Source: Candidatus Eiseniibacteriota bacterium (lineage in GTDB: Bacteria; Orphanbacterota; Orphanbacteria; Orphanbacterales; Orphanbacteraceae). From it: a DNA stretch of 64,000 bases. The DNA lies in contig JAJCZU010000002.1 of the NCBI GenBank assembly GCA_029262235.1, positions 1,142,927-1,206,926 of the forward strand, given 5' to 3'. How positions within the stretch are numbered: position 1 is the stretch's first letter; the number at the start of each line of letters is the position of its first letter. This document shows positions 42,709 through 62,220 of the stretch, in pieces. The notes beneath the pieces are model-generated. The model saw only the letters and a list, made by a program, of their open reading frames with translations, did not search any database and was not told the origin of the DNA. Both the position numbers and the translations under genes were made by a program.

Positions 42709-42737
42709 AGCGGGGCCTTCCGTAAGGGGAGAAGGAG

Positions 42738-43404: not shown

Positions 43405-43434
43405 TTGACGCAGCGCCGTTTTTCATGGTATCGT
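43405..43434 (+). promoter_or_regulatory. candidate promoter for the polysaccharide locus (-35 TTGACG, 18-bp spacer, extended -10 TGgTATCGT)
   Basis: Read directly in the divergent rmlC / sugar-transferase intergenic region; prediction only. Confidence 0.3.
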
Positions 43435-43576: not shown

Positions 43577-44218
43577 ATGACCGAGGTTCTACTCTCCCTT
43601 CCCATGGAGAAGCGGAGTACGTATGCATTCGTCAAGCGCGCGGTCGACATTCTGGTCGCCGGCGTTTTCCTTGTTGCATTTTTCCCTCTTTTTCTCATGA
43701 TAGCGTTGCTGATTCGTATCGACTCACCAGGGCCGGTCATCTTTCGGCAGGTCCGCGTGGGAAAAGATGGAAAAAGATTTAACTTCTATAAATTCCGGTC
43801 GATGGTTAAAGATGCGGAGCAAATGAAGCAAAGTCTGCTGGATCAGAACGAAGCGGAACAACCGTTGTTCAAGATTCGTGAGGATCCGCGGATCACACGA
43901 CTGGGTAAGTTCTTGCGGCTCAGCAGCTTGGACGAAGTACCCCAGCTGTTCAACGTTCTGCGCGGCGACCTGACGCTCGTGGGGCCCAGGCCGCATCTTC
44001 CGGAAGAAGTCCGTGAGTACACGGAGGCGCACCGGATCAGGCTGAGTGTGGCGCCGGGAATCACCTGTCTCTGGCAGGCGAATCACCGGTTGTCGACGAA
44101 ATTCGTGGACTGGATCGAGTCGGACATCCGTTACGTGAACGAGCGATCGTTCGCACTCGATCTGAAGATATTGTGGGACACGCTGATCACGGTCCTAAGC
44201 AGGAGAAACGCGGCTTGA
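43577..44218 (+). CDS. short-form sugar phosphotransferase (PglC-like bacterial sugar transferase)
   Basis: About 213 aa with a single N-terminal TM and the C-terminal PRP...DxxY...W catalytic region of the bacterial sugar transferase family; ATG at 43577 preceded by GAGGGA. Confidence 0.8.
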   Translation: MTEVLLSLPMEKRSTYAFVKRAVDILVAGVFLVAFFPLFLMIALLIRIDSPGPVIFRQVRVGKDGKRFNFYKFRSMVKDAEQMKQSLLDQNEAEQPLFKIREDPRITRLGKFLRLSSLDEVPQLFNVLRGDLTLVGPRPHLPEEVREYTEAHRIRLSVAPGITCLWQANHRLSTKFVDWIESDIRYVNERSFALDLKILWDTLITVLSRRNAA

Positions 44219-45078
44219 AACGGATCGCTCTTCTCATGGCCGGCTCACTGGCCGTCTGGATACTCTTCGCGGGTTGCGGTTCGCGCCCCGGTTTCGAGGC
44301 GGACTTCGCGGAAGGCCCTCGTGTGGACGCCCCGGAAAGCGGGATGACCGACGAGGAACTGGACAAGATCCGGCGTGAGGAAGCGGCGCAGCGAAAAACC
44401 GAGTTGCGCGAGATGATCGCGGCCGATCGCCTGCAGGCGGTCGACTCCGAACGCGAGGGCGTGGACATTTACGCAGGGGTGGGACCGTATCGTCTCGGGC
44501 CCGGCGATGTGTTTCTGCTCCGGTTCGCGCCGCAGAACGAAATGAACGCGTCGTTCACGGTGCAGCCCGACGGCATGGTCAACTTCGACCTGATCGGGGA
44601 GCTCCCCGTCGCAGGGATGACGCCGTCCGATCTCGGGAAAACTCTCGAAGAACTGTACGCGGTCTATCTGCGCGATCCGATCATCAACGTCACGATGCGG
44701 GAGACGACCTCCCAGCGGCTTTATGTGTTCGGCGAGGTCACGAGACCGGGCATGTTCGAGCTGAAGAATCCGACCACGCTCACGCACGCGCTCAGCATGG
44801 CGGGCGGGTGGAAGGATTCGGCACGCATGGAAAACGTCATGGTGATCCGCGTCGGCGAGGATGACGTGCCGTTCGCGTTTCAGATCGACATCAAGGAGAT
44901 GCTGGAAGAGCGCGTCGTGCACAGAGACGTCACGCTTCAGAATATGGATATCGTATACGTACCGGAAGGCAGGATCTCGGCGACGGGAGACTGGATCGCG
45001 CGCTTCTTCCGGATCGTGCAGCCGCCGATCGACGCGGCATGGCGCGCTGTCATCGTGAAGAACGGGTTCACTCCGTAG
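44215..45078 (+). CDS. polysaccharide export outer-membrane lipoprotein (Wza/OPX-like)
   Basis: Lipoprotein signal (LAVWILFAGC) then polysaccharide-export-type sequence; TTG start after AGGAGA, overlapping the upstream stop. Confidence 0.7.
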   Translation: MKRIALLMAGSLAVWILFAGCGSRPGFEADFAEGPRVDAPESGMTDEELDKIRREEAAQRKTELREMIAADRLQAVDSEREGVDIYAGVGPYRLGPGDVFLLRFAPQNEMNASFTVQPDGMVNFDLIGELPVAGMTPSDLGKTLEELYAVYLRDPIINVTMRETTSQRLYVFGEVTRPGMFELKNPTTLTHALSMAGGWKDSARMENVMVIRVGEDDVPFAFQIDIKEMLEERVVHRDVTLQNMDIVYVPEGRISATGDWIARFFRIVQPPIDAAWRAVIVKNGFTP

Positions 45079-45126
45079 GCACACTGTGTTTACGCAATCG
45101 ATAACGAGCGGGGCACCGGGAACGGC

Positions 45127-46554
45127 ATGAGCGATCAGGATACGAAAACAGTGGAAAACAACCACCGTCGCGAGGGGGCTACCTCGGAGTCCATCCGCGA
45201 GGGGGGGCAGCTCACCGGGCGCGATATCTTCAAAGTCCTCTTTCGCCGCAAATGGGTCATCCTGCTGCTGTTCCTGACCACACTCGTCTTCGTTCTCTGG
45301 CAGGCGAGTCAGATTCCGACGGAATACCGCGCCACGGCGGAAGTATTGATCAATCGCGGACAGCGCAAGAGCGCGCTCGACAGAAACGTTTCGCTCCTGA
45401 CATGGGACGAAACGGTGGCGACCGAGCTGCAGATCGCCGAGAGTCGTCCGGTCATCAAGAGCGCGCAGGCCGCGCTCAATGCCGAGGCGGAAGCGAACGG
45501 TACCAAACCGATCGAGATCATCGCGAATAAAGTCCGGTCGCGACTCATGGAAGAGTCGAACGTGGTCGGAGTCATGTATACGTCACTCCGCGAGGAAGAC
45601 GCCCGGCCTGTGGCCAACGCGCTCGCGACCGCCTACATCGAGTACCACAAACAGCTCTTCGCGCTTCCCGACGCCACCTCGTTCTTTGTCGAACGCGTGG
45701 CGTCCGCGGAAGAAAACCTGACCGACCTCATGTCGCGTCGCCAGGCGATCAAAGAGGCGGGCACGATCACGCGCATGGCGACGCAGCAGGATCTGCTGCT
45801 CCAGGAAATGCGCACGATCCGCGAATCACTCATGAAGGACGAGAAGGAATACGCGGCGATGCAGACCGAGCTGGAACAGGCGCGACGGCTGTACCGGGGC
45901 GGAGTCGACATGCCGTTCGGCACCACGCGCGACGAGGGGAACGCCGGTCTCGCGCGCATCATGCTGCGTCTCAAGGAAGATCTGCTCAAGCTGAAGCAGA
46001 ACCGCGACCAGCTTCTTACGAAGTACACTCCGCAGCACCCGCAGGTGCTTGCGCTCGACGACCAGATTGAGAAAGTGCAGGAGAGTCTGACGGATGAGAC
46101 GGGCCAGGTTCTGCAGGTCAAGGAATCCGAGATCGCGATCAAGCGCTCCGAGATCCAGGATCTGCGGGAAAGCCTGAACAACCTGAACGCGAAAATGCGG
46201 GAGATGCCGCGGATCGAACGGGAACTGGACGACCTCGACAGGTCCATCGACCTCGCTAGCAAAGCGTACCAGGAACTGCTCGACAACCAGGTGCGCATTC
46301 AGGTGGCCGAAGTAAGCTCACGCGACTTTACGCTGACGCTGCTTTCGGATGCCGGCGCTCCCATCGCAAGCAACCCGCGCGACCCCGTGAGGCTCGCGCT
46401 CGTTCCCGCGTTCAGTCTGTTGGTCGGGGTCAGCCTGGCCTTCTTTCTCGAAACAATGGACCACTCCTTCAAGAGCCGTGAGGACGTGGAACGATATCTC
46501 GATCTTTCGGTGCTGGCTTCCGTGCCCGACCGGAAGAAAGCGTTGACCCGCTGA
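45127..46554 (+). CDS. polysaccharide co-polymerase / chain-length determinant (Wzz/GumC-like)
   Basis: 475 aa; N-terminal TM, long coiled-coil periplasmic region, C-terminal TM. Confidence 0.7.
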   Translation: MSDQDTKTVENNHRREGATSESIREGGQLTGRDIFKVLFRRKWVILLLFLTTLVFVLWQASQIPTEYRATAEVLINRGQRKSALDRNVSLLTWDETVATELQIAESRPVIKSAQAALNAEAEANGTKPIEIIANKVRSRLMEESNVVGVMYTSLREEDARPVANALATAYIEYHKQLFALPDATSFFVERVASAEENLTDLMSRRQAIKEAGTITRMATQQDLLLQEMRTIRESLMKDEKEYAAMQTELEQARRLYRGGVDMPFGTTRDEGNAGLARIMLRLKEDLLKLKQNRDQLLTKYTPQHPQVLALDDQIEKVQESLTDETGQVLQVKESEIAIKRSEIQDLRESLNNLNAKMREMPRIERELDDLDRSIDLASKAYQELLDNQVRIQVAEVSSRDFTLTLLSDAGAPIASNPRDPVRLALVPAFSLLVGVSLAFFLETMDHSFKSREDVERYLDLSVLASVPDRKKALTR

Positions 46555-46566
46555 CGGACGGAATCG

Positions 46567-47343
46567 ATGAGCAAGATTTATGAAGCGCTGAATCGCGCGC
46601 GAGACGACGACGACGATCCGAAGAAGCCGACGCCGCCGACCGAAAAGCCGGTGGGCACCGGTTCGGGCTCGGGTACGCGCGGTGGTTTCGATCCTCGCAT
46701 ACTGAGCGAGGAACTGCAGAAGGTCGCCGTCGACTACGAAGCGCTGCACAGCTCGATGGAGAAGACCCTTTCGACCGTCGCCGGCCATGCGATCATGATG
46801 GTCTCCTCGGTCGAGGAAGAGGGCACGACCACGGTCGCCGCGGAATACGCGAGCACGCTCGGACGCGGCATTCCGCGCGGCACGCTGCTGATCGACGCGA
46901 ACTTCAGGAACCCTACGCTTCACGACGTGTTCGGCGTGCCGAACGATACCGGTTTCGCCGACGTCCTCCAGGAGCGTGTCACCCTGAAGCAGGCCGTGCA
47001 GACGCTTGCCGAAAACGAACTGTATCTGCTGACGGCGGGCCTTGTCGATTTCTCGCCGAGCGCGCGCATTTCGGGTTCTGTCGTCTCCCGGTTTCTCGCC
47101 GAGGCGAAAGCCCAGTACGGCGCCGTCATCCTGGACGGACCTCCCGTCATTCCGTATCCCGAGGCGGTCCACATCGCGAGCGCGGCCGACGGCGTTGTTT
47201 TCATCATCGAGTCGGAACGGACGAAGCGCGAGATCGTCGCGCGGGCGAAGGATGCGCTCGACGCGGTCGATGCCAACATTCTCGGAGTCGTGCTGAATCG
47301 CCGCCGCTATGTCATACCGGAATTCCTGTATCGCCAACTCTAA
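46567..47343 (+). CDS. BY-kinase-like P-loop protein with degenerate Walker A
   Basis: 258 aa; CpsD/CapB-like layout but the Walker A position reads VSSVEEEGTTT with no GK[ST]; Walker B-like VILDGPP is present. Confidence 0.6.
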   Translation: MSKIYEALNRARDDDDDPKKPTPPTEKPVGTGSGSGTRGGFDPRILSEELQKVAVDYEALHSSMEKTLSTVAGHAIMMVSSVEEEGTTTVAAEYASTLGRGIPRGTLLIDANFRNPTLHDVFGVPNDTGFADVLQERVTLKQAVQTLAENELYLLTAGLVDFSPSARISGSVVSRFLAEAKAQYGAVILDGPPVIPYPEAVHIASAADGVVFIIESERTKREIVARAKDALDAVDANILGVVLNRRRYVIPEFLYRQL

Positions 47344-48598
47344 GCCGGACGCCCGCTTGCACTCGACCGATCCGTACACCGCACCTTTCGCGCCCGATCC
47401 GGACGTGGATCAATTCTACCGGGAGAAAGTGCGCGCGGTCGTCGACATCGTGCTCGGCGCATGGAACGGCGAAGCCCCCACTGTGGTGCTGAGCGGAAGT
47501 CTCGCACTCGGCGATGGGCGCGCTACACGCACTCCCGAAGGCCCCGGGCCCGCAAGCGACGTCGACCTCTATCTCGTAACAGAAGAAGCCGCGCACGCCG
47601 CCGCACTCACCGACCTTCCCCGCATCCACGGCGCGCTCCGACGTTCCGACCGCACGTCTGATCTCACGGTCGATCTCGGCGTCACGACTGCCGCGCGCCT
47701 CGCGGCCGCGCCCGTTTCGATCGCAAACCGAACGCTGGCCGAGCACGGACGTGTTCTGACCGGTGATCGGGAGGTGCTCGATGCGATGCGGTCCGTACGG
47801 GGAAGACCGATCCCGCCGGCGGACGGACTGCTGCTGCTGCAGAACCGCACGGTGGAAGCGCTCGTGCCTGTCGCTCTCTTCGGGGACTCATCGATGCACG
47901 ACGCTTTCTGGTATCTTCACGCGAAGACGCTGCGCGATATCGGACTCTCGGCGATTGTCGCCGCCGGGCGTTTCGCTCCGCGACCCGGCGACCGTGCGGA
48001 ACTCGTGCGGGCGACATGGGAAGAGAGTGAGCTCGGCAAGGTCGTTCCCGGTTTTCCCGCACGCTATGAAGAGTCCTCGGGCTCGTCTTCGCGCGGAAGC
48101 GCGCCTTCGCGCGGAAGCGGAAGCAGCGTGCGCGGCGAAACGGCGCTTCGGCGCGCATGGGAAGATCTCGGCACCACTCTGTTCGCCGTGGCGCGATGGG
48201 AGCACCGTACGATCGACCCGCATGCGAGCGACGATCCGAACAGCTGGGTGCGTGCCGGGAGCGGACCGCTTCGGAGGCGGGTCAAATCGTGGCTCCCGTT
48301 TGCCACAGGAGACCCCGGCGCTTTTGCGAAAGCGCTGACCCGGGGATTTCCGGGAACACCGATGCAGGGCGCCTACGTGGCGGCTTCGTGTCTCATGGCA
48401 TCCGCGGGGACCGCATGGGGAGGCGGCGCGCCCGATCAAGGCACGATGATTGCAGGAGCCCGGGCCATCTGCCCGTTCACCGTCAAGGATCGCCGCCCGG
48501 ACGCCGCATGGTGGGAACTCCGGAACGCGATCTGCGAGTACTGGAATGAAACGGTCCTCGGCGGAAGCCGCACGATCGAGAAGGGAGGTCCGCGATGA
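47309..48598 (+). CDS. hypothetical protein, possible nucleotidyltransferase-fold domain
   Basis: 429 aa; weak GS...DxD signature (LSGSLALGDG...SDVDLYLV); internal Ser/Gly-rich linker; start uncertain because it overlaps the upstream gene. Confidence 0.4.
   Translation: MSYRNSCIANSKPDARLHSTDPYTAPFAPDPDVDQFYREKVRAVVDIVLGAWNGEAPTVVLSGSLALGDGRATRTPEGPGPASDVDLYLVTEEAAHAAALTDLPRIHGALRRSDRTSDLTVDLGVTTAARLAAAPVSIANRTLAEHGRVLTGDREVLDAMRSVRGRPIPPADGLLLLQNRTVEALVPVALFGDSSMHDAFWYLHAKTLRDIGLSAIVAAGRFAPRPGDRAELVRATWEESELGKVVPGFPARYEESSGSSSRGSAPSRGSGSSVRGETALRRAWEDLGTTLFAVARWEHRTIDPHASDDPNSWVRAGSGPLRRRVKSWLPFATGDPGAFAKALTRGFPGTPMQGAYVAASCLMASAGTAWGGGAPDQGTMIAGARAICPFTVKDRRPDAAWWELRNAICEYWNETVLGGSRTIEKGGPR
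48087..48119. repeat. imperfect 18-bp tandem direct repeat (cttcgcgcggaagcg core x2) inside the coding sequence
   Basis: Read directly; it encodes the SSRGSAPSRGSGS low-complexity linker. Confidence 0.6.
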
Positions 48599-49749
48599 AG
48601 CGTGCCGTGCTGGCCGTTCTGATCGACGCCTTCGGCTATGACCTGCTCGATCGTCATCCGTTCATGCCGGAACTTGCAGAGCGCAGGCCGCTTGCAACGG
48701 TGGCCGGTTTCAGTTCATCCGCGATCCCGTCGCTCCTGACCGGCAAATGGCCGAACGAGCACGGGCGCTGGTTCCTGTACGGAAAAGCGGGCGAAACGAC
48801 GCCGTTCAGCAACGCGCGTCTCTACGCATGGGCGGAGAATCTGCCGAAGATCGGCATCCGCGCGCGCCAGCGTTATGAACGCGAGTTCGCCCGGACTTCC
48901 GGCATCAACGAGTATTACCATCTCTATAATATACCCTTGAAATATCTCCCCTCGTTCGACCTTCCCGGCAAGCGATCGATCTACGAACCGGGCGCGATCG
49001 AAGGCGTACCGAATCTTTTCGACAAGCTCGTCGAACACGAGATCCCCTACGCGTCCTGGAACTGGAGCACGCCCGAAGAGAAAAACTTCACGGAACTGCA
49101 CGCGACGATCCGCGAGGCGAAGCTTCCGTTCTATTTCCTCTACACGGCCGTGCTCGACGGCGTGATGCACGCGACGGGAACGGATTCGCCGGAAACCCGG
49201 GCGGTCATCGAGAGCAATCAGAAGTCGATTCGCGAGGCGGTGCGCATCGCGGAGGAATGCTACGACGAAGTCTCCCTCTACATTTTCTCGGATCACGGCA
49301 TGGTGAACGTCGAGACCGTGATCGATCTGATGAATGACGTGCGGGCGCTCCCTTTCGTCGAAGGGAAGGACTATCTGCCGTTCTACGACTCGACATACGC
49401 GCGCTTCTGGTTCCGGAACGAGCGCGCGGAGAAAGCGATCCGCGCACTGCTCGACTCCGCGGCGGGGGGCAGGCTGCTGTCACGCGGGGAACTCGAGCGC
49501 CTGCATGTATGGTTCCCGGACCGCGAATACGGCGACGCGATCTTTCTGACGGACGCCGGAACGGTCATCGCGCCGTCGTTCATGGGGAACGAACCGCCCC
49601 GCGCGATGCACGGATACCATCCTGAAGACGCCGGTTCGAACGGGATGCTGGTCGGGAGCCGGTCCATCCCCGCGGGAGTCACCTCGATCATGGATATGGC
49701 GCTCTTTCTCGAGCAGGAAGCGCGGCGCGCCCACGGGACCGGGTCGTGA
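48595..49749 (+). CDS. alkaline-phosphatase-superfamily enzyme (type I phosphodiesterase / nucleotide pyrophosphatase-like)
   Basis: Metal-ligand style motifs LIDAFGYD, SSSAIPSLLTG, FSDHGM, HGYH; 384 aa; ATGA overlap with the upstream gene. Confidence 0.7.
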   Translation: MKRAVLAVLIDAFGYDLLDRHPFMPELAERRPLATVAGFSSSAIPSLLTGKWPNEHGRWFLYGKAGETTPFSNARLYAWAENLPKIGIRARQRYEREFARTSGINEYYHLYNIPLKYLPSFDLPGKRSIYEPGAIEGVPNLFDKLVEHEIPYASWNWSTPEEKNFTELHATIREAKLPFYFLYTAVLDGVMHATGTDSPETRAVIESNQKSIREAVRIAEECYDEVSLYIFSDHGMVNVETVIDLMNDVRALPFVEGKDYLPFYDSTYARFWFRNERAEKAIRALLDSAAGGRLLSRGELERLHVWFPDREYGDAIFLTDAGTVIAPSFMGNEPPRAMHGYHPEDAGSNGMLVGSRSIPAGVTSIMDMALFLEQEARRAHGTGS

Positions 49750-51227
49750 GCACACTCGCGCGCGCCTCGCGGGCAGCCCCTTTCAGCCTCATCGCAAAAG
49801 CCGTCCGTTTCATCCTTTCGTTCGCGACCAGTATTCTGGTCGTGCGCATGCTTCCCGAGAACGAATACGGTGTACTTACGATCGTCCGCACGATCGCGTC
49901 GCTCGCGGGCGCGCTGATCGGCTTCGGAATGGGAAACGCAATCCTGCGCTTCCTGCCCGAACGCGAAGCGCAGGGAGAGGGGACCCGCGCGCTCCTGAAC
50001 TGGGCCGCGCTTCTGCCCATGGCCGCCTGGGCGGTCGTCACCGGCTGCGCGTTTCTGCTTCGCGACTCGATCGACGCCCTCTATGGAACGCCGATCGGAA
50101 CCCCGCTGCTCGCCGGCATCGCCCTGCTTTCCGGGAATCTCCTCTACACGATCCTGATGAACACATGGACGGCAACGTTTCGAACGCGGGAACTCGCGCT
50201 CGTGCAGTCCGTGCTCAGCTTCGCGATCCTGGCCGCTTCGTATGGCGCGATCCGCATGGGCTGGGGCGTGATCGGCGTCCTCGCCGCGAGCTCGCTCCCG
50301 TATCTGCTGGCCGCGATCGTGCGCGGCCCGGCCGTATGGCTGTCGCTCAAGCACGGGGCGGCGAGGCTGCCGGCCGGGCCGCTGCTTGCATACGGCATCC
50401 CCGTGGCGTTCGTCGACATTCTGAACCAGATCACGTGGCGCCAGTCCGAAACGATTCTGCTCGGGCATTACACGTCGGCCGCCGCGGCCGGCACGTTCGA
50501 TATCGCGTACAAGCTCCCGCAGCTGCTCGTCGAATTCGTGCCCGACACGATCTGGCCGCTCGTTCTGGCGGCATTCGCCGAGGTGTACACGCGGGACCGC
50601 TCCCGTCTCGACGAGATGATCCGGCGGTACTACCAGGTGCTTTTTCTGCTCGTGCTCCCCGTCAGCGTGTTCGGTGTGCTCTACGGGGACCTTCTGATTC
50701 AGACGGCCTACGGCGCGGAACGGGCCGAAGCCGGGCAGTACGCGCGGATCTTCTTTTTCATCTTTCATCTCACGTTCTGGGGCACGCCGCTCTCGATGGC
50801 CCTCTATCTTCTGAAGAAGACGAACGTGAATCTCTGGCTCGCGCTGGTGGCCGCCACGGTGAACGTCGGCCTCGACTTCGTGATGATTCCGAAGTACGGG
50901 CTGCGCGGGGCGGTGCCTCCGGTCGCGATCGCGGTCGCGCTGACGGCGATTCTCCGCGGAATCACGCTCCGGCGCATGCACGGGACGCTTCCCATACCAT
51001 GGCGATTTCTCGGCCGGGCCTATCTGGCAACGGCCCCGCTCGCGATTTTTTACCCGATTCGGGGCATGGGATCGCCTCAGACGGCTCTTTGTGCGATCAG
51101 TGCTTTGTCTCTTTTGCTGTTGCCCTTTACAATAAGGTTCGCGCGACTGCTCGGCGACGAGGAGCGCGAGTATCTCAGGCAGTCGGGCATTCCCGGACGC
51201 GAAATTCTCCTCCGGTGGTTCCGTTGA
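49746..51227 (+). CDS. polysaccharide flippase (Wzx, MOP superfamily)
   Basis: 493 aa polytopic membrane protein with Wzx-like N-terminus; GTG start overlapping the upstream stop. Confidence 0.75.
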   Translation: MSTLARASRAAPFSLIAKAVRFILSFATSILVVRMLPENEYGVLTIVRTIASLAGALIGFGMGNAILRFLPEREAQGEGTRALLNWAALLPMAAWAVVTGCAFLLRDSIDALYGTPIGTPLLAGIALLSGNLLYTILMNTWTATFRTRELALVQSVLSFAILAASYGAIRMGWGVIGVLAASSLPYLLAAIVRGPAVWLSLKHGAARLPAGPLLAYGIPVAFVDILNQITWRQSETILLGHYTSAAAAGTFDIAYKLPQLLVEFVPDTIWPLVLAAFAEVYTRDRSRLDEMIRRYYQVLFLLVLPVSVFGVLYGDLLIQTAYGAERAEAGQYARIFFFIFHLTFWGTPLSMALYLLKKTNVNLWLALVAATVNVGLDFVMIPKYGLRGAVPPVAIAVALTAILRGITLRRMHGTLPIPWRFLGRAYLATAPLAIFYPIRGMGSPQTALCAISALSLLLLPFTIRFARLLGDEEREYLRQSGIPGREILLRWFR

Positions 51228-51263
51228 TGCGGACACGGGGGTTCACGAACTACGGAGATCAGG

Positions 51264-51938
51264 ATGTATCGAGAGCGAACGGTATCGGCAGTGATTCCCT
51301 GCTACAACGAGGAGGAGGGGATCGCGCACGTCATCGAGTCGATGCCCGACTTCGTGGACGAAGTCGTCGTCGTCGACAACAATTCGACGGACCGCACAGC
51401 GGAAATTGCGACGAAGCTCGGCGCGCGGGTGATTCACGAAAAGCGCAAGGGTTACGGCGCGGCCTACAAAGCGGGGATTCCCGCGGCGAAGTCGGACATC
51501 ATCGTGACGATGGACGGCGACGGGACGTACCCGGTCGAGGAGATCAAGGATCTGATCGACTTCATGTTCGAGAAAGATCTCGACTTCGTTTCGGGTTGCC
51601 GGTTCCCGCTCAAGAACGCCGAAGCGATGCACTCCCTGAACAAGCTCGGCAACACGATCCTGACGATCGAAATGCTGATTCTGTATGCGCGCGGCATTCG
51701 CGATTCGCAGTCCGGCATGTGGTGCTTCAAGTCCGCAGTGTATCCGAAGTTCAAGATGACGTCGGACGGTATGCCGTTCTCCGAGGAGATCAAGATCGAA
51801 GCGATTCTCGCGAAGGACGTCAAGTTCGACGAGTATCACATTACGTATCATCAGCGAATCGGCGAAGTGAAGCTCAACATGTGGGCCGACGGCTTCGAGA
51901 ATCTCTTTTTCCTCGCAAAGAAGCGATTCTTCCGGTAG
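51264..51938 (+). CDS. family 2 glycosyltransferase (DPM1/GtrB-like polyprenyl-phosphate glycosyltransferase)
   Basis: VIPCYNEE start, DxD-type MDGDG motif; 224 aa with no obvious TM segment. Confidence 0.8.
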   Translation: MYRERTVSAVIPCYNEEEGIAHVIESMPDFVDEVVVVDNNSTDRTAEIATKLGARVIHEKRKGYGAAYKAGIPAAKSDIIVTMDGDGTYPVEEIKDLIDFMFEKDLDFVSGCRFPLKNAEAMHSLNKLGNTILTIEMLILYARGIRDSQSGMWCFKSAVYPKFKMTSDGMPFSEEIKIEAILAKDVKFDEYHITYHQRIGEVKLNMWADGFENLFFLAKKRFFR

Positions 51939-51983
51939 AGGGCGCCGCTGCGCGACACGCGCCGCGCGGGGGGGACATGTAGC

Positions 51984-54452: not shown

Positions 54453-55930
54453 AACGACAATCGACGATAGGAAAAGTGCTGAGCCCGCAACTCATCTGGG
54501 CGCTCTTCACCATTGCGCTCACGATGGTGCTCGGCTACGTGCTCGCGGGACAGATCATCTCGCCGAATCAGCGCATCATCAAAGCCTCGGTCGGTCTCGC
54601 GCTTCTCACGACGGCGTTTCTGCTTCCGAACCGCTTCGCCGTGGCGTTCATGCTTTTCGCGATCCCGTTTCCGCAGAACACGACCATTGGATCGACAACG
54701 GTCATCTTCGCGTTCATCATCTTTTCGTTCTGGCTCCTCAAGATGGCTCTCGGGTACGAAAAACCTCCGATCCTCACAGGTCTCGAGCCGTGGCTCGTCG
54801 CCATCGTGCTTCTCTACTTCATCTCGTTCGTCATGGTGCAACCGAACGAAATGAAGCAGGCGGTTGCGGGCTTCCAGACTTTCATTTCCGCTGTCTTCAT
54901 CTTTTATCTCGTCACGAACATGGTGCGAACCGAACGCGACATTCAATTCGTTCTGAACGCGCTGATCATTTCGTTTTCCGTTGTGGCCACGATCGCGATG
55001 ATCGAACTCTGGCTGCCGGGCGCGGCCGACAAGCTCGGGTTCCTGAAGGTTTCCACGCGCACGGTGGGGAAGGCGTCGGGCGTGCGCGTCGGCTCCGTAT
55101 TCGGCGACTACGAAATGTTCGCGGAGTACTGCGCGATCTTCATACCGATTCTTCTGATTCGCGTGATCGGCGAGAAAGTATTCCTGCGCCAGTTCATCTG
55201 GATGCCGCTTCTGGGCGTCGCCATCATGCTTCTGATCGGCACCGCTACGCGCGGCGCGTTTCTGAGCATGCTCATCGGCCTGACTTACCTGGTCTGGATT
55301 TCGTGGCGCATCATGGACTTTCAGAAGTTTCTGCCGCTCGTTATCGTCGCGGCCGTCGCGTTCTACGTATTCGCCATTACGCTCGACCAGTACACCGAAT
55401 CGGCGTCGCTGTTCGGGCGGCTCGGAAGAACGAAGCTCGTCGACGGAATGCCGGACACGAGGGCCCGCGTCTGGAACGAAGCGTGGATTCGCATTCAGGA
55501 CTCGCCCTGGATCGGCCATGGGCCTTACTACTTCACCGGCGTCGACGAGCGAAACGTGCATTCGAATTACCCGCACAGCCTGTTTCTCTTTCTGGCGCAC
55601 ATGATCGGCATCCCGGGCGCCGTGCTTTTTTACGGCTTTCTGCTCGCCATTTTCAGGCGGGGCTACATGGCGGCCCGGGCTTTCGCAACGGAGCGAGGTC
55701 AGTTCGCCTATACCGTGGTGATTCTATCGAGCTGCATGGTTATTTTTCTGATCGACGAATTCAAAATCTCGTTCCTGCGGTACGATCAGACGCAGCAGTT
55801 CACGTGGACGATGTTCGCGCTCGTTCTCGCCGCGAGCCGCGTGGCCATGATGCGCGTGGAAGAACGCAAGAACCAAAACCTGCCAGCGACTCTGCGCAGG
55901 AACGCGACCCGCTCCGCGCGCATCGCCTGA
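54449..55930 (+). CDS. O-antigen polymerase / ligase family protein (Wzy-like)
   Basis: 493 aa polytopic protein with a Wzy_C-like block (GTATRGAFLSM...WIGHGPYYF...HSNYPH); TTG start overlapping the upstream stop. Confidence 0.7.
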   Translation: MKRQSTIGKVLSPQLIWALFTIALTMVLGYVLAGQIISPNQRIIKASVGLALLTTAFLLPNRFAVAFMLFAIPFPQNTTIGSTTVIFAFIIFSFWLLKMALGYEKPPILTGLEPWLVAIVLLYFISFVMVQPNEMKQAVAGFQTFISAVFIFYLVTNMVRTERDIQFVLNALIISFSVVATIAMIELWLPGAADKLGFLKVSTRTVGKASGVRVGSVFGDYEMFAEYCAIFIPILLIRVIGEKVFLRQFIWMPLLGVAIMLLIGTATRGAFLSMLIGLTYLVWISWRIMDFQKFLPLVIVAAVAFYVFAITLDQYTESASLFGRLGRTKLVDGMPDTRARVWNEAWIRIQDSPWIGHGPYYFTGVDERNVHSNYPHSLFLFLAHMIGIPGAVLFYGFLLAIFRRGYMAARAFATERGQFAYTVVILSSCMVIFLIDEFKISFLRYDQTQQFTWTMFALVLAASRVAMMRVEERKNQNLPATLRRNATRSARIA

Positions 55931-55943
55931 TCCCTGAGGACCC

Positions 55944-58451
55944 ATGCTCCTTGCACGCCTTCTGAGCCTTCTCGGTATCGTCGGAACGCTCGGGCTCTTT
56001 CTGCCCGGCCGCTTTCGTGTGTTCGCGATTCTGGCTGCGGCCTCCGTTCTGCCGGGGCACGCGCTGCTCGTTCGCACGGCATGGGGGAGGCAGCAGAGCC
56101 CGTGGATGCGCGCCACCGCGTCGATTGCCACGTCATGGGCGCTCTTCTTCGTGGCCATCGTCATTGCGGAGCGGCTTCAGATCGGCACGGGCTGGTTCTC
56201 CATCCCGCTGCTCGCCGCCACGCTTCTCGGCTCGTTCGTGGCCTGGCTCCCGCCGAGGATTCCGGTTGCGGACGGAGGGAGAGAGACCGGCGCGCTGATC
56301 GTGCTACTGACGGTTCTCGCTGCGCTCGCGCTGGCGCGCGGCGCCTCGGTCACACTCGCGACGGATGCTCTCGATCACATCGCTTATCTCAAGGAGATCG
56401 TGCACACGGGCGATCCGTTTCCGCTGACGTCTTACTACGACCCGTCCACCGACACGGCGTACGACATCCGCAAGGGATTTTTTCAGCCGGTGCAGGCGGC
56501 CGTACTCGTTGCCACCGGATGCGATGCGGTGGAAGGGTGGCACGCCTTTCCCGCGGTGGTGCTGCTTCTCAGCGGCCTCGCGTTCTTCGCACTCGCGCGG
56601 GAAACTCTCGGGGACGCGCGGGCGGGCGTGATCGCAACCGCGGTCTATCTCCTCGGGTTCGACGCGGGAATCGCGGGTGTCTGGTTCGGACGCGCGTGCA
56701 CGCCGTTTCTGTTTTCGGCGCCGCTTGTCTGGGGAATTCTGCTTCTTGCGTATCGAGCGGGGCGCGGGGAGAAAACGCCGTTCGTTCTTCCGTTCGTCTT
56801 CGGCTTCGCCATCATGGGCGCGCACATCTTCGCCGCGGTCGTCGCCGGACTCCTTGCCGCGCTCTACGCGTTTCTGCACGTACTCCGTTGGAAGGGGCGC
56901 GCGCTTCGTTCTTTCAGCGCCGCTCTCGGACTCATTGCCGCGGGCATGCTGCCGCTCGGACTCTGGCGGTTCGCGACGAGCTATCCGCCGGTCGACCCGG
57001 TGCACACGCATCTCCAGGGAGTCGTTACCGTAAGCGAGGGACTGTTCTTCTCGACACCCGTTCTCGCGGTCGCGCGGCTCGGACTCTTTTCGCTCCTCGC
57101 GATCCCGGCAACGATTCTGCTCGGCAGACGCTTATGGAAAGAGGAAGGCGTATTCTTCGCGGGGGCCGTTACGATCGGCCCGCTGCTGCTCATTTTCAAC
57201 CCGCTTCTTGTCCCCGTGCTCGCCAGGATCGCGGGGTATCTCGTCGCCCGTCTCGCCTGGTTCGGCGGTTACGCCCTCGTGTGGGGAGCGCTCCTCGGTC
57301 ACTGGTTCCGCAGCCGTGCTCCGGGTGACCGGAACACGGCACTCGCCAGGGGCGCCGGGGTCGCGGCGCTGCTCGTGTTTCTCGGCACGCTGAGCCTCGG
57401 CGATCGTCAGGAGGACTGGCGCAAGCTGCAATGGATGCGGACGGCACCGCGCGCGGAATGGCACGTCGAGACCTGGCCCGATCTGATCGGGCTTCTGAAC
57501 ACGCTGCCCGCACGTTCGCGGATCGCGTCCGATCCGCTGACCTCGTATATGATTCCGGCGTTCACGTCGCACAAGGTGACCACGCTGCTCGCGCAGCATT
57601 CATCACCGGCGGATCCTGTTGCGCCCGCGCGTCTGCAGGACGCCGTACGCATTCTTTCGCCGTTTACGAGCGCGCGCGAGACGTGGGACGCGCTCCGGCG
57701 CCGGGACGCGGATTATCTGGTGCTGAATTTCCGTTTCGAGAAGCCCGTTGTGCTCTTCTACAGCGGAATCGATCCCGCGCTCCACGAAGCGACCCTCGCG
57801 AAGTTCCGGCGTGACCCGGACCGCTATGAGGAGATCGGGGCGATGGACCGCTGTCATCTTTTCCGGATCGTGAAAAGCGCGCCTGCGCCGGAGCCCGGCG
57901 TCCCGGACGGGATGGCGGCGATGACCCCGGAAGTGGCCCTGTTGCCCCCGGATGCCACGCCGGTCGCTCCGAACGCGAGCCCCGCGGGCATACAGCTGCT
58001 GGCGGCGTCGCTCGGCACGAAGACCGTGTCGCCGGGAGACACGATTCCGCTTACCCTTTACTGGACACGCGGGGCGGGCAAGGTCGGCCCGATCCCGGAA
58101 AGGCTCTATCTGCGCCTCGACAGCCGGGAGCCCGGGGCGATCGATCGCGATTCTCCGATCGGCAAGCTGACCCGCAAATGGAGACAGACACGCGAAGGGA
58201 AGCTGTTCCGGGCGCGCACGAGCAGAAACCTCGTGCGCGGAAGCCTGCCGGCGTTTCTCTGGCATCCCGGAGCGATTCTCGTCGATTCGATCGCGATTCA
58301 GGTCCCTGCCCGGATGGCGCCCGGCCGGTACGCCGTGGAGGCCATGCTCCGCCCCCATGCGCACATTCAGGTCTACCACTGGACCGACTTCCTTCGCGAA
58401 GAGGATTCGTTCAGCGGTATCACCGTAGGAGAACTGGAGATACGGCCGTAA
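55944..58451 (+). CDS. large polytopic membrane protein, unknown family (GT-C-like candidate), paralogue 2
   Basis: 835 aa; same architecture and shared blocks with the 51984..54452 product (DAxDH...RKG loop, xDPxxPxHxHL, QHSSPxDP, PGRY). Confidence 0.6.
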   Translation: MLLARLLSLLGIVGTLGLFLPGRFRVFAILAAASVLPGHALLVRTAWGRQQSPWMRATASIATSWALFFVAIVIAERLQIGTGWFSIPLLAATLLGSFVAWLPPRIPVADGGRETGALIVLLTVLAALALARGASVTLATDALDHIAYLKEIVHTGDPFPLTSYYDPSTDTAYDIRKGFFQPVQAAVLVATGCDAVEGWHAFPAVVLLLSGLAFFALARETLGDARAGVIATAVYLLGFDAGIAGVWFGRACTPFLFSAPLVWGILLLAYRAGRGEKTPFVLPFVFGFAIMGAHIFAAVVAGLLAALYAFLHVLRWKGRALRSFSAALGLIAAGMLPLGLWRFATSYPPVDPVHTHLQGVVTVSEGLFFSTPVLAVARLGLFSLLAIPATILLGRRLWKEEGVFFAGAVTIGPLLLIFNPLLVPVLARIAGYLVARLAWFGGYALVWGALLGHWFRSRAPGDRNTALARGAGVAALLVFLGTLSLGDRQEDWRKLQWMRTAPRAEWHVETWPDLIGLLNTLPARSRIASDPLTSYMIPAFTSHKVTTLLAQHSSPADPVAPARLQDAVRILSPFTSARETWDALRRRDADYLVLNFRFEKPVVLFYSGIDPALHEATLAKFRRDPDRYEEIGAMDRCHLFRIVKSAPAPEPGVPDGMAAMTPEVALLPPDATPVAPNASPAGIQLLAASLGTKTVSPGDTIPLTLYWTRGAGKVGPIPERLYLRLDSREPGAIDRDSPIGKLTRKWRQTREGKLFRARTSRNLVRGSLPAFLWHPGAILVDSIAIQVPARMAPGRYAVEAMLRPHAHIQVYHWTDFLREEDSFSGITVGELEIRP

Positions 58452-58578
58452 AGACTCTCCAGAAATCGGGAATCCCGTCCGAAAAGAGGAACAATAGAGA
58501 GGGTTTACGCGAATCGCCACGCGTCATACACTTTTACACGACCTGTGCCATCGACACGCTCGCATTCGAAGGAGAGAA

Positions 58579-59676
58579 ATGAATATTCCGTTCGTCGACC
58601 TCAAGTCGCAGTACGCAGGCATTCGTGATGAAGTTGCCGAAGCTGTTCAGGGGATTCTCGACAATACCGCGTTCATCGGCGGCAAGCCTGTGAAAGACTT
58701 CGAGGAGGCGTTCGCCGCCATGGAAGGCGCGCGCTTCGCCGTGGGAACGAGTTCCGGTACGTCTTCGCTTCACATCGCCCTCGAAGCGGCCGGGGTCGGC
58801 CCCGGCGACGAAGTCATCACCGTGCCGAACACGTTCATCGCGACGACCGAGTCCATCAGCCAGTGCGGCGCCAAGTTCCGGTTCGTCGATATCGAGCCGC
58901 TGCGCCACAACATGGATCCGGCGAAGATCGAAGCGGCCATCACGCCGAAGACGAAAGCCATCGTGCCGGTTCACCTGTACGGCCAGCCGGCCGACATGGC
59001 CCCGATCATGGCGATCGCGAAGAAGCACGACCTGATCGTGATCGCCGACTGCGCGCAGGGTCACTGCGCGACGTACGACGGAAAGAAGATGGGCGAGCTC
59101 TGCCACGCTTCGACATACAGTTTTTACCCGGGCAAGAACCTCGGCGCGTACGGCGACGCCGGCGCACTCGTCACGAACGACGAGGCGCTCGCAAAGAAAT
59201 GCGCGCAGCTGATCGACCACGGCCGCTCGGGCAAGTACGAGCACAATCTCGAAGGGTACAATTACCGGCTCGACGGGATACAGGCGGCGATCCTGCAGGT
59301 GAAGCTCAAGTACATCGAGGGCTGGACCGAAGCGCGGCGCGCGGCGGCCTCCTATTATCGGGAACGCCTGACTTCGCTTCCGATCGAAGTGAATCAGGAA
59401 GCGAAGGGTTCGCGCCACGTCTACCACCTCTTCTCTGTGTTTCACGAAGACAGAGACCGACTGCGGGAGGGACTCGAGGCAAAAGGCATTGCCGCCGGAA
59501 TCCACTATCCGATTCCGCTGCATCTGCAGGTGGCGTATGCCGACCGTGGATACGCGAAGGGAGATTTCCCGATCGCCGAGAAGAGCGCGGCCACCCAGCT
59601 CTCTCTGCCCATTTTTCCGGAACTGACGAAGGAACAGATCGACCACGTTGTCGATACGCTCGGGTCGCTGCTGTAG
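58579..59676 (+). CDS. DegT/DnrJ/EryC1/StrS-family PLP-dependent sugar aminotransferase
   Basis: 365 aa; typical start MNIPFVDLKSQY; AAGIHYPIPLHLQ block; AGGAGAG before the ATG. Confidence 0.9.
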   Translation: MNIPFVDLKSQYAGIRDEVAEAVQGILDNTAFIGGKPVKDFEEAFAAMEGARFAVGTSSGTSSLHIALEAAGVGPGDEVITVPNTFIATTESISQCGAKFRFVDIEPLRHNMDPAKIEAAITPKTKAIVPVHLYGQPADMAPIMAIAKKHDLIVIADCAQGHCATYDGKKMGELCHASTYSFYPGKNLGAYGDAGALVTNDEALAKKCAQLIDHGRSGKYEHNLEGYNYRLDGIQAAILQVKLKYIEGWTEARRAAASYYRERLTSLPIEVNQEAKGSRHVYHLFSVFHEDRDRLREGLEAKGIAAGIHYPIPLHLQVAYADRGYAKGDFPIAEKSAATQLSLPIFPELTKEQIDHVVDTLGSLL

Positions 59677-59707
59677 CACGCCCGGCCTGATCCCTTTCGC
59701 GGAGACC

Positions 59708-61195
59708 ATGTTGGATTCCAAACTCGCATCGTTACGGAGTCGCCGTTCGCGGAACCGCGCACTCCTGCTTGTCCTGAGCGACATGATTCTCGTCGCGGCG
59801 AGCTTCCTGTTTGCGTACTGGTTCCGGCTGCAGTCCGGGTTCTTTCTGCGAACCATTCCACTCGAGTCGTACCATTTCCTCTCGCTCGGGGCCGTCTGCC
59901 TCGTCTGGGTGATGATCATGAGCGCGCACGGGCTGTACCGGCGCGAAGTGTATCTCTCCGTGTTCGATCAGATGGTCGGCATATTCAATTCCGTGAACCT
60001 GGGCGTACTGCTCGTCCTGTTTCTCGCGTTCGTTACGAAGTTCGACTACTTCCTCGAGCGACGTCTCGTGCTGCTCGTCGCCTGGGTCATGGCGATCACG
60101 CTGCTTACAGGTACGCGCGTTTTTCTCTATCGCGGCCTTTTTCTGACGCGCATCGCGAAGGATCCGTTCCGGTGTCGCATTCTGATCGTGGGCGCGGGCG
60201 AAACAGGCACGCAGTTTCTGCAGCTCGTCCGTCACACGAAAGACCATGTGTACGACGTGGTGGGGTTTCTCGACGACGACCCCGCGAAACACGGACAGAC
60301 GGTCGAAGACATTCGCATTCTCGGGAAAGTGGACGATATCGAAGACATCGTGGCCCGCCTCAATATCGAACGCGTGTTCGTGGCCGTGCAGAAAATCGGG
60401 CAGGAGGGGCTGATCGATCTGATCTCCCGCTGCATGCGGTCGAAGGTCCCCGTCAAAATGATTTCCGATCAGTTCCACATGTTTGCCGCGGACGGCGCGA
60501 TCGAACGAATCGACGGCGTACCGACGCTCGCCGTGCGCGATACGCCGATGACGGGTTTCCATTTTCTGATGAAGCGGGCGTTCGACGCCACGACCGCGGG
60601 CGTGCTGCTGATCGTGCTCGCCCCGCTCTTTCTCGCGCTGGCGATCATGATCAAGACAGTAGGCGGGCGCGGCCCGGTCTTCTTCAGGCAGACCCGCGCG
60701 GGGCAGGGCGGAAAGCCGTTCAACTTCTACAAATTCCGTTCGATGCGGACCGACATGGACGACGCGGTCCATCGCGACTACGCGAAGAACTTCGTTTCAG
60801 GAGAAGCGAAAGCGACTTCGGATTCCGAAGCGGACACGCCTGTCTATAAGATGAAACGCGATCCGCGCGTGACGGGAATCGGATGGATTCTGCGCAAGAC
60901 GTCGCTCGACGAACTCCCGCAGCTCTTCAACGTTGTGAAGGGGGAAATGAGCCTCGTCGGGCCGCGACCGCCGATTCTGTACGAACTGCAGTACTACAAA
61001 GAGTGGCACCGGCGGCGCCTCGACGCGAAACCCGGCCTCACCGGTCTCTGGCAGGTGAGCGGGCGGAGCAGCGTGCCGTTCAACGAAATGGTGCTTCTCG
61101 ACCTCTATTACATCGATCACTGGTCCTTGAAGCTGGATTTTGAGATCATGTTGCGCACCGTCCCGGTTATACTGTTCGGGAAGGGCGCTTACTAA
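59708..61195 (+). CDS. undecaprenyl-phosphate sugar phosphotransferase, long form (WbaP/WcaJ-like)
   Basis: About 495 aa; N-terminal TM bundle, central Rossmann-like region, C-terminal bacterial sugar transferase domain (PRP...[10 protein letters not shown]). Confidence 0.85.
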
Positions 61196-61209
61196 GCGAA
61201 AGGACACCA

Positions 61210-62220
61210 ATGCGCAACATTGCCGTGATCGGGTGCGGATACTGGGGACCGAACTTCGTTCGGATCTTCACGCAGATGCCCGGATCCCAGGTTAAATACG
61301 TCTGTGATCTGAGTCAGGATCGCCTCGACCAGATGAAACTCCTCTATCCGCACGTGACGACCACCACGGATATGAACGATATTCTTCAAGACCCCGAGGT
61401 CGACGGTGTGGTCGTAGCCACCCCCGTGCGGACACATCATCCGATCGCGAAGATGTGCCTCGAAGCGGGGAAGCCGACGCTGATCGAAAAGCCGATCTGC
61501 TCCTCGGTCGAGGAAGCGGACGACCTCATCGCCATCGCGAAAAAGAAGAAAGTCGCCCTGATGGTGGGGCATACTTTTCTGTTCACCGCCGCCGTCAACA
61601 AGGTCAAGGATCTGTTGAACAAGGGCGACATGGGTGACATGCACTATGTGAACTCGACGCGCGTCAATCTCGGGATCTTCCAGGAAGACATCAACGTCAT
61701 CTGGGATCTCGCGCCGCACGACATTTCGATTTTGAATTTCATTTTCGATTCCGATCCGGTCAGCGTCTCCGCGCACGGCCGCGACTACATTCAGAACGGC
61801 GTAGAGGATGTCGCGTTTCTGACGCTTCATTACCCGAACGGCAAGATGGCGAACCTGCACGTGAGCTGGCTCGACCCGTGCAAGATCCGCCGCACCACGT
61901 TCGTCGGCAGCAAGAAGATGGTCGTATACGACGATGTCGAACAGCTCGAGAAGATCCGCATCTACGACAAGGGCGTCGACGTGCAGCCGCACTACGAAAC
62001 GTTCGGCGAGTTTCATCTCGCGTATCGCTTCGGCGATATCTTCACGCCGAAACTGGACGACCGGGAGCCGCTGAAGGCGGAAGCCCAGGAGTTTCTGAAG
62101 GCGATCGAAACGGGTCGCGCAGAGCGCGCCACCGGGGAAGAGGGACGTTCGGTGGTCCGCGTGATCGAAGCTGCCTGTGAGTCGATCAAGAAACAGGGCG
62201 CCCAGATCTCACTCTCATAA
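61210..62220 (+). CDS. Gfo/Idh/MocA-family sugar-nucleotide oxidoreductase
   Basis: N-terminal VIGCGYWGPNF Rossmann motif and EKP motif; 336 aa. Confidence 0.85.
   Translation: MRNIAVIGCGYWGPNFVRIFTQMPGSQVKYVCDLSQDRLDQMKLLYPHVTTTTDMNDILQDPEVDGVVVATPVRTHHPIAKMCLEAGKPTLIEKPICSSVEEADDLIAIAKKKKVALMVGHTFLFTAAVNKVKDLLNKGDMGDMHYVNSTRVNLGIFQEDINVIWDLAPHDISILNFIFDSDPVSVSAHGRDYIQNGVEDVAFLTLHYPNGKMANLHVSWLDPCKIRRTTFVGSKKMVVYDDVEQLEKIRIYDKGVDVQPHYETFGEFHLAYRFGDIFTPKLDDREPLKAEAQEFLKAIETGRAERATGEEGRSVVRVIEAACESIKKQGAQISLS

Follow-up and report, generated by a model that had tools for sequence, protein, structure and literature searches.

A small and a large phosphoglycosyl transferase in one polysaccharide locus of a Candidatus Eiseniibacteriota bacterium

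Why would a single Wzx/Wzy-type polysaccharide locus carry two enzymes that initiate glycan synthesis? The question is raised by a 64,000-nucleotide stretch of contig JAJCZU010000002.1 from a Candidatus Eiseniibacteriota bacterium (assembly GCA_029262235.1; hereafter the window, GC content 62%). All credible genes from position 43577 to the window end lie on the plus strand, and two of them encode phosphoglycosyl transferases (PGTs), a short one at 43577..44218 and a long one at 59708..61195. The initial annotation, made from the letters alone, proposed that such a pair reflects either the assembly of two polymers by a single locus or the merging of clusters that had separate origins. Our analysis contradicts a recent fusion. 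The best explanation, to which we give about an even chance, is one old operon charging the lipid carrier in three ways, with the two PGTs priming different units linked to undecaprenyl diphosphate (Und-PP); two different lipid-linked products from one locus are plausible and form our preferred reading.

Both genes were confirmed as members of the Bac_transf family (PF02397). Their domain matches have E-values near 1e-64 (1.8e-64 and 217 bits against a cutoff of 27 for the short PGT; 3.9e-64 and 215.9 bits for the long one), so chance is no issue for either assignment. The short gene (plus strand, ATG start, 213 aa) encodes a small monotopic PGT at the head of the operon. The PglC sequence of C. 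concisus was taken from PDB alignments and aligned with both window PGTs and three orthologues of each. In PglC numbering, the short PGT retains K7, R8, D11, P24, R88, D93-E94 and P111-R112-P113, and the same catalytic residues are conserved in its three orthologues. The earlier description of this protein as PglC-like holds for its small architecture but not for the diNAcBac-specific PglC signature. Small PGTs specific for UDP-N,N′-diacetylbacillosamine (UDP-diNAcBac) carry three hallmarks according to PMC10186338, namely a GLLLP loop, an aromatic box of five residues and about 14 additional residues at the C-terminus; both window PGT families lack the loop, the complete box and the extension. 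In the short PGT the loop reads KQSLL, two aromatic-box positions are non-aromatic (Y118 replaced by E, F154 by I), and the chain ends before the extension of about 14 residues that bears K196 and F197. It scores 132 bits against WbaP catalytic domains and 111 bits against PglC. Every one of its 120 nearest homologues is 191–275 aa long; it therefore represents a genuine small-PGT lineage and no truncated copy of the long PGT. A protein identical to it is present in the homology database, although looking up its exact sequence gave no result. As a side observation, the clade carries Cys in place of the Gly usual for monotopic PGTs in the motif PG(I/L)TG(L)WQ ('PGITCLWQ'), a replacement conserved in 4/4 orthologues.

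The long PGT (plus strand, 495 aa) has the architecture of large monotopic PGTs, with an N-terminal transmembrane region and a Rossmann-like CoA_binding_3 domain (E 3.4e-15) ahead of the catalytic domain, and its residues 55–495 align with solved WbaP chains. It had been called WbaP/WcaJ-like, which agrees with this architecture; the protein passes the broad subfamily TIGR03025 (421.7 against a cutoff of 295.55) but misses the equivalogs for WcaJ (TIGR03023, 367 against 410.75) and WbaP (TIGR03022, 323.3 against 403). Against the XrtA-type family TIGR03013 (cutoff 393.35) both PGTs stay below the threshold, the long one with 229.2 bits and the short one with 157.6 bits.

Judged by their sequences, the two PGTs are different enzymes. 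Their catalytic domains are 43% identical, and the long PGT carries, relative to the short one, a 13-residue insertion in the mobile loop adjoining the sugar site. In a neighbour-joining tree of the catalytic domains the head-of-operon PGTs and the PGTs corresponding to the long one form two separate clades with matching internal branching order. Both proteins are intact and under strong purifying selection. Catalytic and membrane-helix residues are all retained in both families, the long PGT family conserving the same catalytic set as the short one. The ratio of nonsynonymous to synonymous substitution rates (dN/dS), computed against the orthologues of related locus L002 (93–94% identical for the two PGTs), stands at 0.10 (short PGT) and 0.047 (long PGT), values that resemble most of the operon. 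These observations speak against the possibility, raised initially, that one of the two genes is inactive. Both PGTs look active, and each is predicted to transfer sugar-1-phosphate from a UDP-sugar to undecaprenyl phosphate.

Apart from this, the short PGT gene shows a synonymous divergence (dS) from L002 of only 0.35, with all other genes of the operon at 0.57–1.28, and the operon's lowest GC content at third codon positions (GC3). The low dS could reflect mRNA constraint on a first gene or recent exchange of the gene. The whole window gave no Rfam matches at gathering thresholds, so no known leader or riboswitch accounts for it.

Both PGT genes belong to a run of at least 16 same-strand genes, on whose 16 open reading frames (ORFs) Pfam and NCBIfam scans were run. 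The first part of the run comprises the genes for the short PGT, an outer-membrane polysaccharide export (OPX) protein, a polysaccharide co-polymerase (PCP), a bacterial tyrosine kinase (BY-kinase)-like protein, a 429-aa protein of unknown family, an alkaline phosphatase (AlkP)-superfamily protein, Wzx and a family 2 glycosyltransferase (GT2, 224 aa). The second part comprises an 822-aa GT-C protein, a Wzy_C protein, an 835-aa GT-C protein, a DegT-family aminotransferase, the long PGT, an oxidoreductase of the GFO/IDH/MocA family (GFO) and two family 4 glycosyltransferases (GT4). The locus reads as one operon because the genes share one strand and tight junctions, no terminator-like sites were found between genes of the locus, and the sole intergenic promoter match lies upstream of the short PGT. 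Successive junctions measure −4, 48, 12, −35, −4, −4, 36, 45, −4, 13, 127, 31, 14, 0 and −4 bp; at the first of them the stop codon of the short PGT is overlapped by the TTG start of the OPX gene. The widest gap (127 bp, 58452..58578) precedes the DegT gene, where an internal transcription start is possible, and all other junctions fall between −35 and +48 bp. The promoter candidate is a TG-extended sigma-70-like match (TTGACG-18-TATCGT; plus strand, 43405..43434), a consensus match only and the only one of the locus in an intergenic region; the total count of sigma-70-like matches in the region is not above shuffle expectation.

For the fusion scenario, the initial annotation pointed to a comparison of GC and codon usage between the two halves of the locus and to the phylogeny of both PGTs. 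GC3 is 0.76–0.81 for nearly all genes in both halves, with slightly lower values for the gene of the short PGT (0.68) and that of the 429-aa protein (0.72). A comparison of the halves by total GC, which ranges from 0.54 to 0.68 per gene, was rejected as misleading, the variation sitting in codon positions 1 and 2. Related loci (denoted L with a number) were fetched, among them the contigs of homologues of the 822-aa protein, which has few; the window proteins served as BLAST references for annotating 160 fetched loci. Both PGTs and the shared gene order are found again in L002 (822-aa protein 69% identical), L003/L004 (39%; a Candidatus Eisenbacteria metagenome-assembled genome, MAG) and L005 (36%). 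L011 and L090 share this arrangement, as do the visible parts of L007 and L010. Proteins of the relatives sharing this order are 35–70% identical to those of the window, and the lineage labels of related loci are Eisenbacteria, Krumholzibacteriota and 'Gemmatimonadetes'. Both PGTs are among the better-conserved genes: in distant relatives they are 61–67% identical, where the 429-aa protein and both GT-C paralogues reach 33–43%.

That two clusters of separate origin fused recently, or that one PGT gene persists as a decaying remnant, is scarcely credible in view of these data. The spread of total GC and the lower GC3 of the short PGT could be read in favour of this, but GC3 is flat in both halves, junctions are tight, the gene order recurs in the relatives, the two PGT clades branch in the same order, neither ORF is disrupted, every motif is retained, and dN/dS is low. 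On this sequence evidence we reject both a recent fusion and a recent duplication within the locus, and a single, old, vertically inherited operon appears to be the best explanation.

The long PGT is the middle gene of a three-gene cassette. The first gene (plus strand, 58579..59676) encodes the DegT-family sugar aminotransferase (DegT_DnrJ_EryC1, E 1.3e-119), whose best named PDB matches, QdtB (3e-93) and WbpE (5e-79), rank above perosamine and ArnB 4-aminotransferases; the enzyme is closest to C-3 aminotransferases, its regiospecificity being a prediction. The third gene (plus strand, 61210..62220) encodes the GFO (GFO_IDH_MocA, E 1.6e-25). Its best NCBIfam match is the UDP-GlcNAc 3-dehydrogenase NF040723 (E 1.8e-53; 182 bits, below the cutoff of 450), and its PDB sequence matches are uncharacterised oxidoreductases. 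The cassette enzymes thus seem to point to C-3 chemistry. Since the DegT protein is nearest to QdtB and WbpE and the GFO best matches a UDP-GlcNAc 3-dehydrogenase, the cassette looks like a unit for a 2-acetamido-3-amino sugar together with its own initiator.

The association recurs. Orthologues at 49% identity or more were few in a metagenome search with the long PGT. A PGT of the cassette clade adjoins a GFO gene, a DegT gene or both in the window and in L002, L003, L005, L008, L011, L017, L090, L091, L093, L094, L096, L113 and L163. L094 and L113 have the genes in a different order, and L008, where the locus is cut, shows the DegT side only. PGTs merely 30% identical also stand beside GFO and DegT genes (L106, L121, L123). 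A head PGT together with a DegT-PGT(-GFO) cassette is found in L008 and L017, the latter a Krumholzibacteriia MAG. In L017 the cassette PGT (16888..17649) is itself a small form, with an ORF of at most 254 aa, and groups with the large cassette PGTs, which suggests that the N-terminal membrane and Rossmann-like module was gained or lost within one orthologous group.

The cassette appears to be present or absent as a unit. L019 has the core of the operon (PGT, OPX, PCP, kinase-like, unknown-family protein, AlkP, Wzx, GT2, GT-C and GT4), and no second PGT, DegT or GFO gene was found there within 10 kb. The presence of the cassette in some related loci and its absence from others support an ancient modular addition of DegT-PGT-GFO. 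The short PGT heads the locus and adjoins the OPX gene wherever that end is visible; because it heads related loci, including L019 with no second PGT within 10 kb, we infer that it is the core initiator of the operon. The cassette and the GT2/GT-C pair are independent modules: L093 has the cassette but neither GT2 nor GT-C genes, and L019 shows the reverse.

The cassette might instead serve another envelope pathway and be merely co-located, supplying UDP-GlcNAc3N for a GlcN3N-type lipid A or acting in a separate glycan linked to lipopolysaccharide (LPS). We consider this improbable. The lipid A cluster of the window (14367..20356) does contain a GFO whose best NCBIfam match is UDP-GlcNAc 3-dehydrogenase (E 1.6e-59), and the only DegT gene among the window genes scanned is that of the cassette. 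However, lipid A synthesis needs no PGT, and the cassette keeps its PGT in all lineages, within an operon with tight junctions. An aminotransferase gene of the GnnB type may exist in the part of the genome outside the window.

A third lipid-linked donor route, for periplasmic glycosylation, is suggested by the GT2 and GT-C genes. The GT2 (plus strand, 51264..51938; Glycos_transf_2, E 1.6e-27) resembles polyprenyl-phosphate sugar synthases of the DPM/AglJ/PpgS type. Its NCBIfam matches, all below cutoff, are AglJ (8e-40), dolichyl-P-hexose transferase (6e-37) and PpgS (3e-23), and its best PDB sequence match is the dolichol monophosphate mannose synthase 5mlz (E 3.3e-12). The two candidate GT-C-fold membrane glycosyltransferases, TM822 (822 aa; plus strand, 51984..54452) and its paralogue TM835 (835 aa; plus strand, 55944..58451), are 27% identical over 703 aligned positions (E 5e-50). 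Neither gave an NCBIfam match, and like the 429-aa protein they had no Pfam match at E<5. An AlphaFold2 model of TM822 has a pTM of 0.70 and a mean pLDDT of 62, with roughly the first 240 residues mostly at pLDDT 67–91. The top 26 Foldseek PDB matches of this model are all GT-C enzymes (best E 2.9e-6, probability 1.00, TM-scores 0.4–0.5), among them AftA, STT3/PglB, DPY19, ALG9, AftB and EmbA-C. The motif TDAxDH is invariant and common to both paralogues (D146, D149, H150). With a multi-helix membrane domain and an acidic motif in the first periplasmic loop, TM822 and its paralogue qualify, on the model, as GT-C proteins. A profile search among 1.84 billion proteins yielded 681 representative clusters of this family, 208 of them at E<=1e-30; the family has a conserved full-length architecture of about 800–900 aa and usually follows directly after a GT2 resembling polyprenyl-P-sugar synthases, and its distant homologues carry only a 'faint' precomputed DUF6541 match. 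AlkP-Wzx-GT2-GT-C is the most widely conserved block across the related loci.

The resemblance of TM822 to oligosaccharyltransferases raises another alternative, namely that the long PGT primes an unpolymerised Und-PP-linked glycan, which a GT-C paralogue moves en bloc to protein or polymer. The fold of TM822 matches STT3/PglB alongside AftA and DPY19, the gene for TM835 immediately precedes the cassette, and PglB-type enzymes prefer a 2-acetamido sugar at the reducing end. We nevertheless hold this to be distinctly unlikely: GT-C and cassette occur independently (L019, L093), the GT-C gene always follows a GT2, which points to monophosphate donors, AftA as the best fold match uses a monophosphate donor, and no WWDYG-type motif was found on reading the sequence.

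The remaining machinery is single-copy as far as the locus shows. The companions originally named as Wza, Wzz, Wzx and Wzy are present at family level (Poly_export with SLBB, Wzz-type, MOP and Wzy_C). The OPX/Wza-like lipoprotein (plus strand, 44215..45078; TTG start, Shine-Dalgarno-like AGGAG, lipobox FAGC) matches Poly_export, SLBB_2 and SLBB, and its NCBIfam matches to XrtA export, EpsE and EpsY families lie below cutoffs. With 287 aa, Poly_export and one SLBB domain it is short and may not span the outer membrane alone; it may depend on a distinct beta-barrel protein, for which no gene was recognised in the locus. The PCP or chain-length determinant (plus strand, 45127..46554) has no fused kinase; its Pfam Wzz match (E 2e-4, 22 bits) is below the cutoff of 25.5, as are, with respect to their own cutoffs, its full-length NCBIfam matches to EpsF and XrtA chain-length proteins (E 1e-25). 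The adjoining BY-kinase-like P-loop protein (plus strand, 46567..47343) reaches 106.3 bits against the TIGR01007 cutoff of 108.05. In the window and in three orthologues Thr replaces the Walker A Lys ('SSVEEEGTTTV'), and the C-terminal Tyr-containing tail YxxxxxxYxxL is conserved (RRRYVIPEFLYRQL); the protein may be a pseudo-kinase or a non-canonical ATPase. The sole Wzx/MOP flippase seen in the locus (plus strand, 49746..51227) matches Polysacc_synt_3 (E 2.4e-20; 73.4 bits against a cutoff of 23) and Polysacc_synt (E 1.3e-14). The Wzy_C-domain membrane protein (plus strand, 54449..55930; PF04932, E 7.9e-17, 61.9 bits against 31.7) had no PDB sequence match at E<1 and is predicted to be a polymerase or a ligase, as the family also holds ligases and O-oligosaccharyltransferases.

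Such a single set of Wzx, Wzy_C, PCP and OPX proteins favours the view that the two PGTs are redundant or condition-specific initiators. Both would start the same repeat unit with the same or an interchangeable first sugar, as back-ups or under different regulation, a situation reported for redundant PGTs in other systems. One of the PGTs could be under the control of the BY-kinase-like protein, and in Porphyromonas gingivalis loss of the PGT gene wbaQ is apparently compensated by its paralogue wbaP (PMC13086638). We regard redundancy as unlikely. The two PGTs are only 43% identical and differ by a loop insertion beside the sugar site, their separate clades have been maintained side by side across deep divergence, more than 10 loci couple the long PGT with dedicated sugar-modifying genes, and pure redundancy is rarely kept at dN/dS values of 0.05–0.10.

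We therefore return to the preferred reading, in which the two PGTs prime different units. The short PGT, translationally coupled to the export gene, would prime the main Und-PP-linked repeat unit. The long PGT would prime a second, chemically different Und-PP-linked unit, whose pathway may involve a 2-acetamido-3-amino sugar, either as the substrate of the long PGT itself or as a residue added to the unit by the two following GT4 enzymes; this second unit would probably be extended by the GT4 enzymes downstream of the cassette. The GT2 would make a polyprenyl-monophosphate sugar for use by the two GT-C paralogues in periplasmic decoration. One Wzx, one Wzy_C protein, the OPX protein and the PCP together with its kinase-like partner would serve both Und-PP-linked units. 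The outcome could be a single composite polymer, in which the second unit forms a cap, a linker or a minor component, or else two polymers related to each other.

Several points weigh against this proposal. The substrates and products of the two PGTs and the fate of the two units are inferred. Only one Wzx and one Wzy_C protein are present, and such enzymes can be unit-specific. Adjacency shows coupling at the level of the pathway, not use of the amino sugar by the long PGT; in P. gingivalis the Wbp-pathway sugar is proposed to be added last, by VimF, and not first. Neither a hexapeptide acetyltransferase (WbpD-type N-acetyltransferase) nor a UDP-sugar 6-dehydrogenase (such as the UDP-GlcNAc 6-dehydrogenase WbpA) was found in 43577..64000 or in the 5 kb beyond. 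Cassette-clade PGTs without a cassette neighbour on the visible side occur in L092, with a GT4 upstream, and in L095, with a GT4 directly downstream. The absence of the cassette from L019, L016 and L018 rests on at most 10 kb of flank, and the PGT tree is a quick neighbour-joining tree without support values.

Other genes of the locus offer further hints. The 429-aa protein (plus strand, 47309..48598), for which neither Pfam nor NCBIfam gave a match even at E<5, is syntenic in all related loci and is encoded by the fastest-evolving gene of the operon (dN/dS 0.25). Its motif 'LSGSLALGEG...SD(V/I)DLYLV' (G-S...D-x-D), kept in orthologues, looks like a Pol-beta-type nucleotidyltransferase signature. 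The AlkP-superfamily protein (plus strand, 48595..49749; PF01663, E 3.3e-13) is of the type I phosphodiesterase/NPP-like kind. The first GT4 (plus strand, 62221..63315) matches Glyco_trans_1_4 (E 5.9e-36) and Glyco_transf_4. The second (plus strand, 63312..64000; GC3 of the frame 0.77) is cut by the window end and was recognised with the help of the identical metagenome contig L006; the mechanically listed ORF 63319..63819 at this place was discarded as a spurious Arg/Ser-rich frame. Beyond the window, L006 carries genes for a 668-aa protein of the AlkP family, for a SPOR protein and for a further GT2. No exosortase-like match was found among the locus genes in the Pfam and NCBIfam scans or in the L006 extension.

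Elsewhere in the window, dTDP-sugar genes are split on the minus strand (35561..43337), with rmlB (which passes the TIGR01181 cutoff) and rmlA at 35561..37416; at 42738..43337 an rmlC-like gene diverges from that of the short PGT. Between them lie genes for the B12-dependent methionine synthase MetH and a fusion of S-methyltransferase with methylenetetrahydrofolate reductase; the metH / metF-like / rmlC arrangement recurs in L007, and no rmlD was seen in the window. The second GFO gene (17587..18558), whose match to UDP-GlcNAc 3-dehydrogenase is likewise below cutoff, sits between lpxA and lpxB in the order BamA-Skp-LpxD-LpxC/FabZ-LpxA-GFO-LpxB-DUF374-KdtA-LpxK. It is 27% identical to the cassette GFO and has no adjoining aminotransferase gene, its GnnA-like position hinting at a GlcN3N-type lipid A. 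In the same cluster, LpxC is fused to a FabA/FabZ-like dehydratase domain in one 440-aa ORF (15440..16762).

PGT substrate assignment is a bottleneck in bacterial glycan prediction. The long-PGT clade stands almost always beside the same two sugar-modifying genes, which leads to the hypothesis that its donor or pathway involves a UDP-2-acetamido-3-amino sugar. Two initiators with one polymerase and one exporter form a stable design across deep divergence, which fits the composite-polymer model of P. gingivalis, and the locus exposes a GT-C family missed by current domain libraries. Current understanding is not overturned by these findings; they extend the catalogue of known layouts.

Among known systems, the short PGT resembles PglC and EpsL in consisting of the catalytic domain only, with the re-entrant-helix Pro, the Asp-Glu dyad and the PRP motif, but it fails the diNAcBac signature and scores higher against WbaP catalytic domains. 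The long PGT shares the succession of N-terminal membrane region, CoA_binding_3 and Bac_transf with WbaP and WcaJ of Salmonella O-antigen and E. coli colanic acid synthesis. Unlike these, it stays below both equivalog cutoffs, has its own loop insertion, and is linked to 3-dehydrogenase and 3-aminotransferase genes, suggesting a different sugar pathway. The GT2 and GT-C genes recall the streptococcal GacI/GacK/GacL, Gtr and mycobacterial Aft/Emb side-chain systems, which combine a polyprenyl-P-sugar synthase, a flippase and a GT-C enzyme; in the window, too, genes of the Wzx family, the polyprenyl-P-sugar synthase-like GT2 and the GT-C fold are adjacent. The window GT-C proteins differ in belonging to no Pfam family, in being duplicated so as to flank the Wzy_C gene, and in their C-terminal part, which is periplasmic and, at about 300 residues, long.

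Polysaccharide clusters that contain two Bac_transf genes are not new. Bifidobacterium eps clusters list rfbP and cpsD, two such genes (PMC8557894), and the unrelated fetched loci L129 and L145 carry two each. The XrtA/PEP-CTERM loci are alike in this respect, although the two transferases are not specifically discussed in the PEP-CTERM paper (Haft 2006); in contrast to those loci, the window PGTs fall below the TIGR03013 cutoff and no exosortase was seen in the locus. The present locus stands out by its stable pairing of a small with a large PGT, by the DegT-PGT-GFO cassette and by two GT-C proteins that lack a Pfam family, and the small-plus-large pairing with a dedicated cassette is specific to the clade of the window.

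The closest parallel is offered by P. gingivalis, for which it is proposed that two paralogous PGTs initiate different Und-PP-linked units, WbaQ the O-polysaccharide (O-PS) repeat and WbaP a linker, the A-linking saccharide, that carries a Wbp-pathway sugar (PMC13086638). A common Wzy connects the two units, chain length is determined by WzzP, and the final ligation falls to WaaL (PMC13086638); wbaP, wbpB and porR mutants lose the second product only (PMC4560394). Our model for the window works likewise, with two paralogous PGTs and two units that share Wzy, chain-length regulator and downstream transfer, and the dependence of the second P. gingivalis unit on a Wbp-type pathway including wbpB and porR would be mirrored by the predicted 3-amino-sugar genes that accompany the long PGT. 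The nearest relatives of the window organism carry labels (Eisenbacteria, Krumholzibacteriota, Gemmatimonadetes) that presumably belong, as do the Bacteroidota, to the Fibrobacteres-Chlorobi-Bacteroidetes (FCB) group. We speculate that the operon is the clustered counterpart, in uncultured FCB-group phyla, of the two-initiator system of P. gingivalis: the long PGT would prime an amine-bearing, GlcNAc3N-type cap or linker that the Wzy_C protein joins to the main polymer, possibly tethering proteins, an undescribed GT-C family would decorate this polymer from a polyprenyl-P-sugar, and the DegT-PGT-GFO cassette would define a large-PGT clade with a new substrate class. Taken jointly, these proposals are a long shot. 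In the window, the long PGT sits directly between the two sugar-modifying genes and everything lies in one operon.

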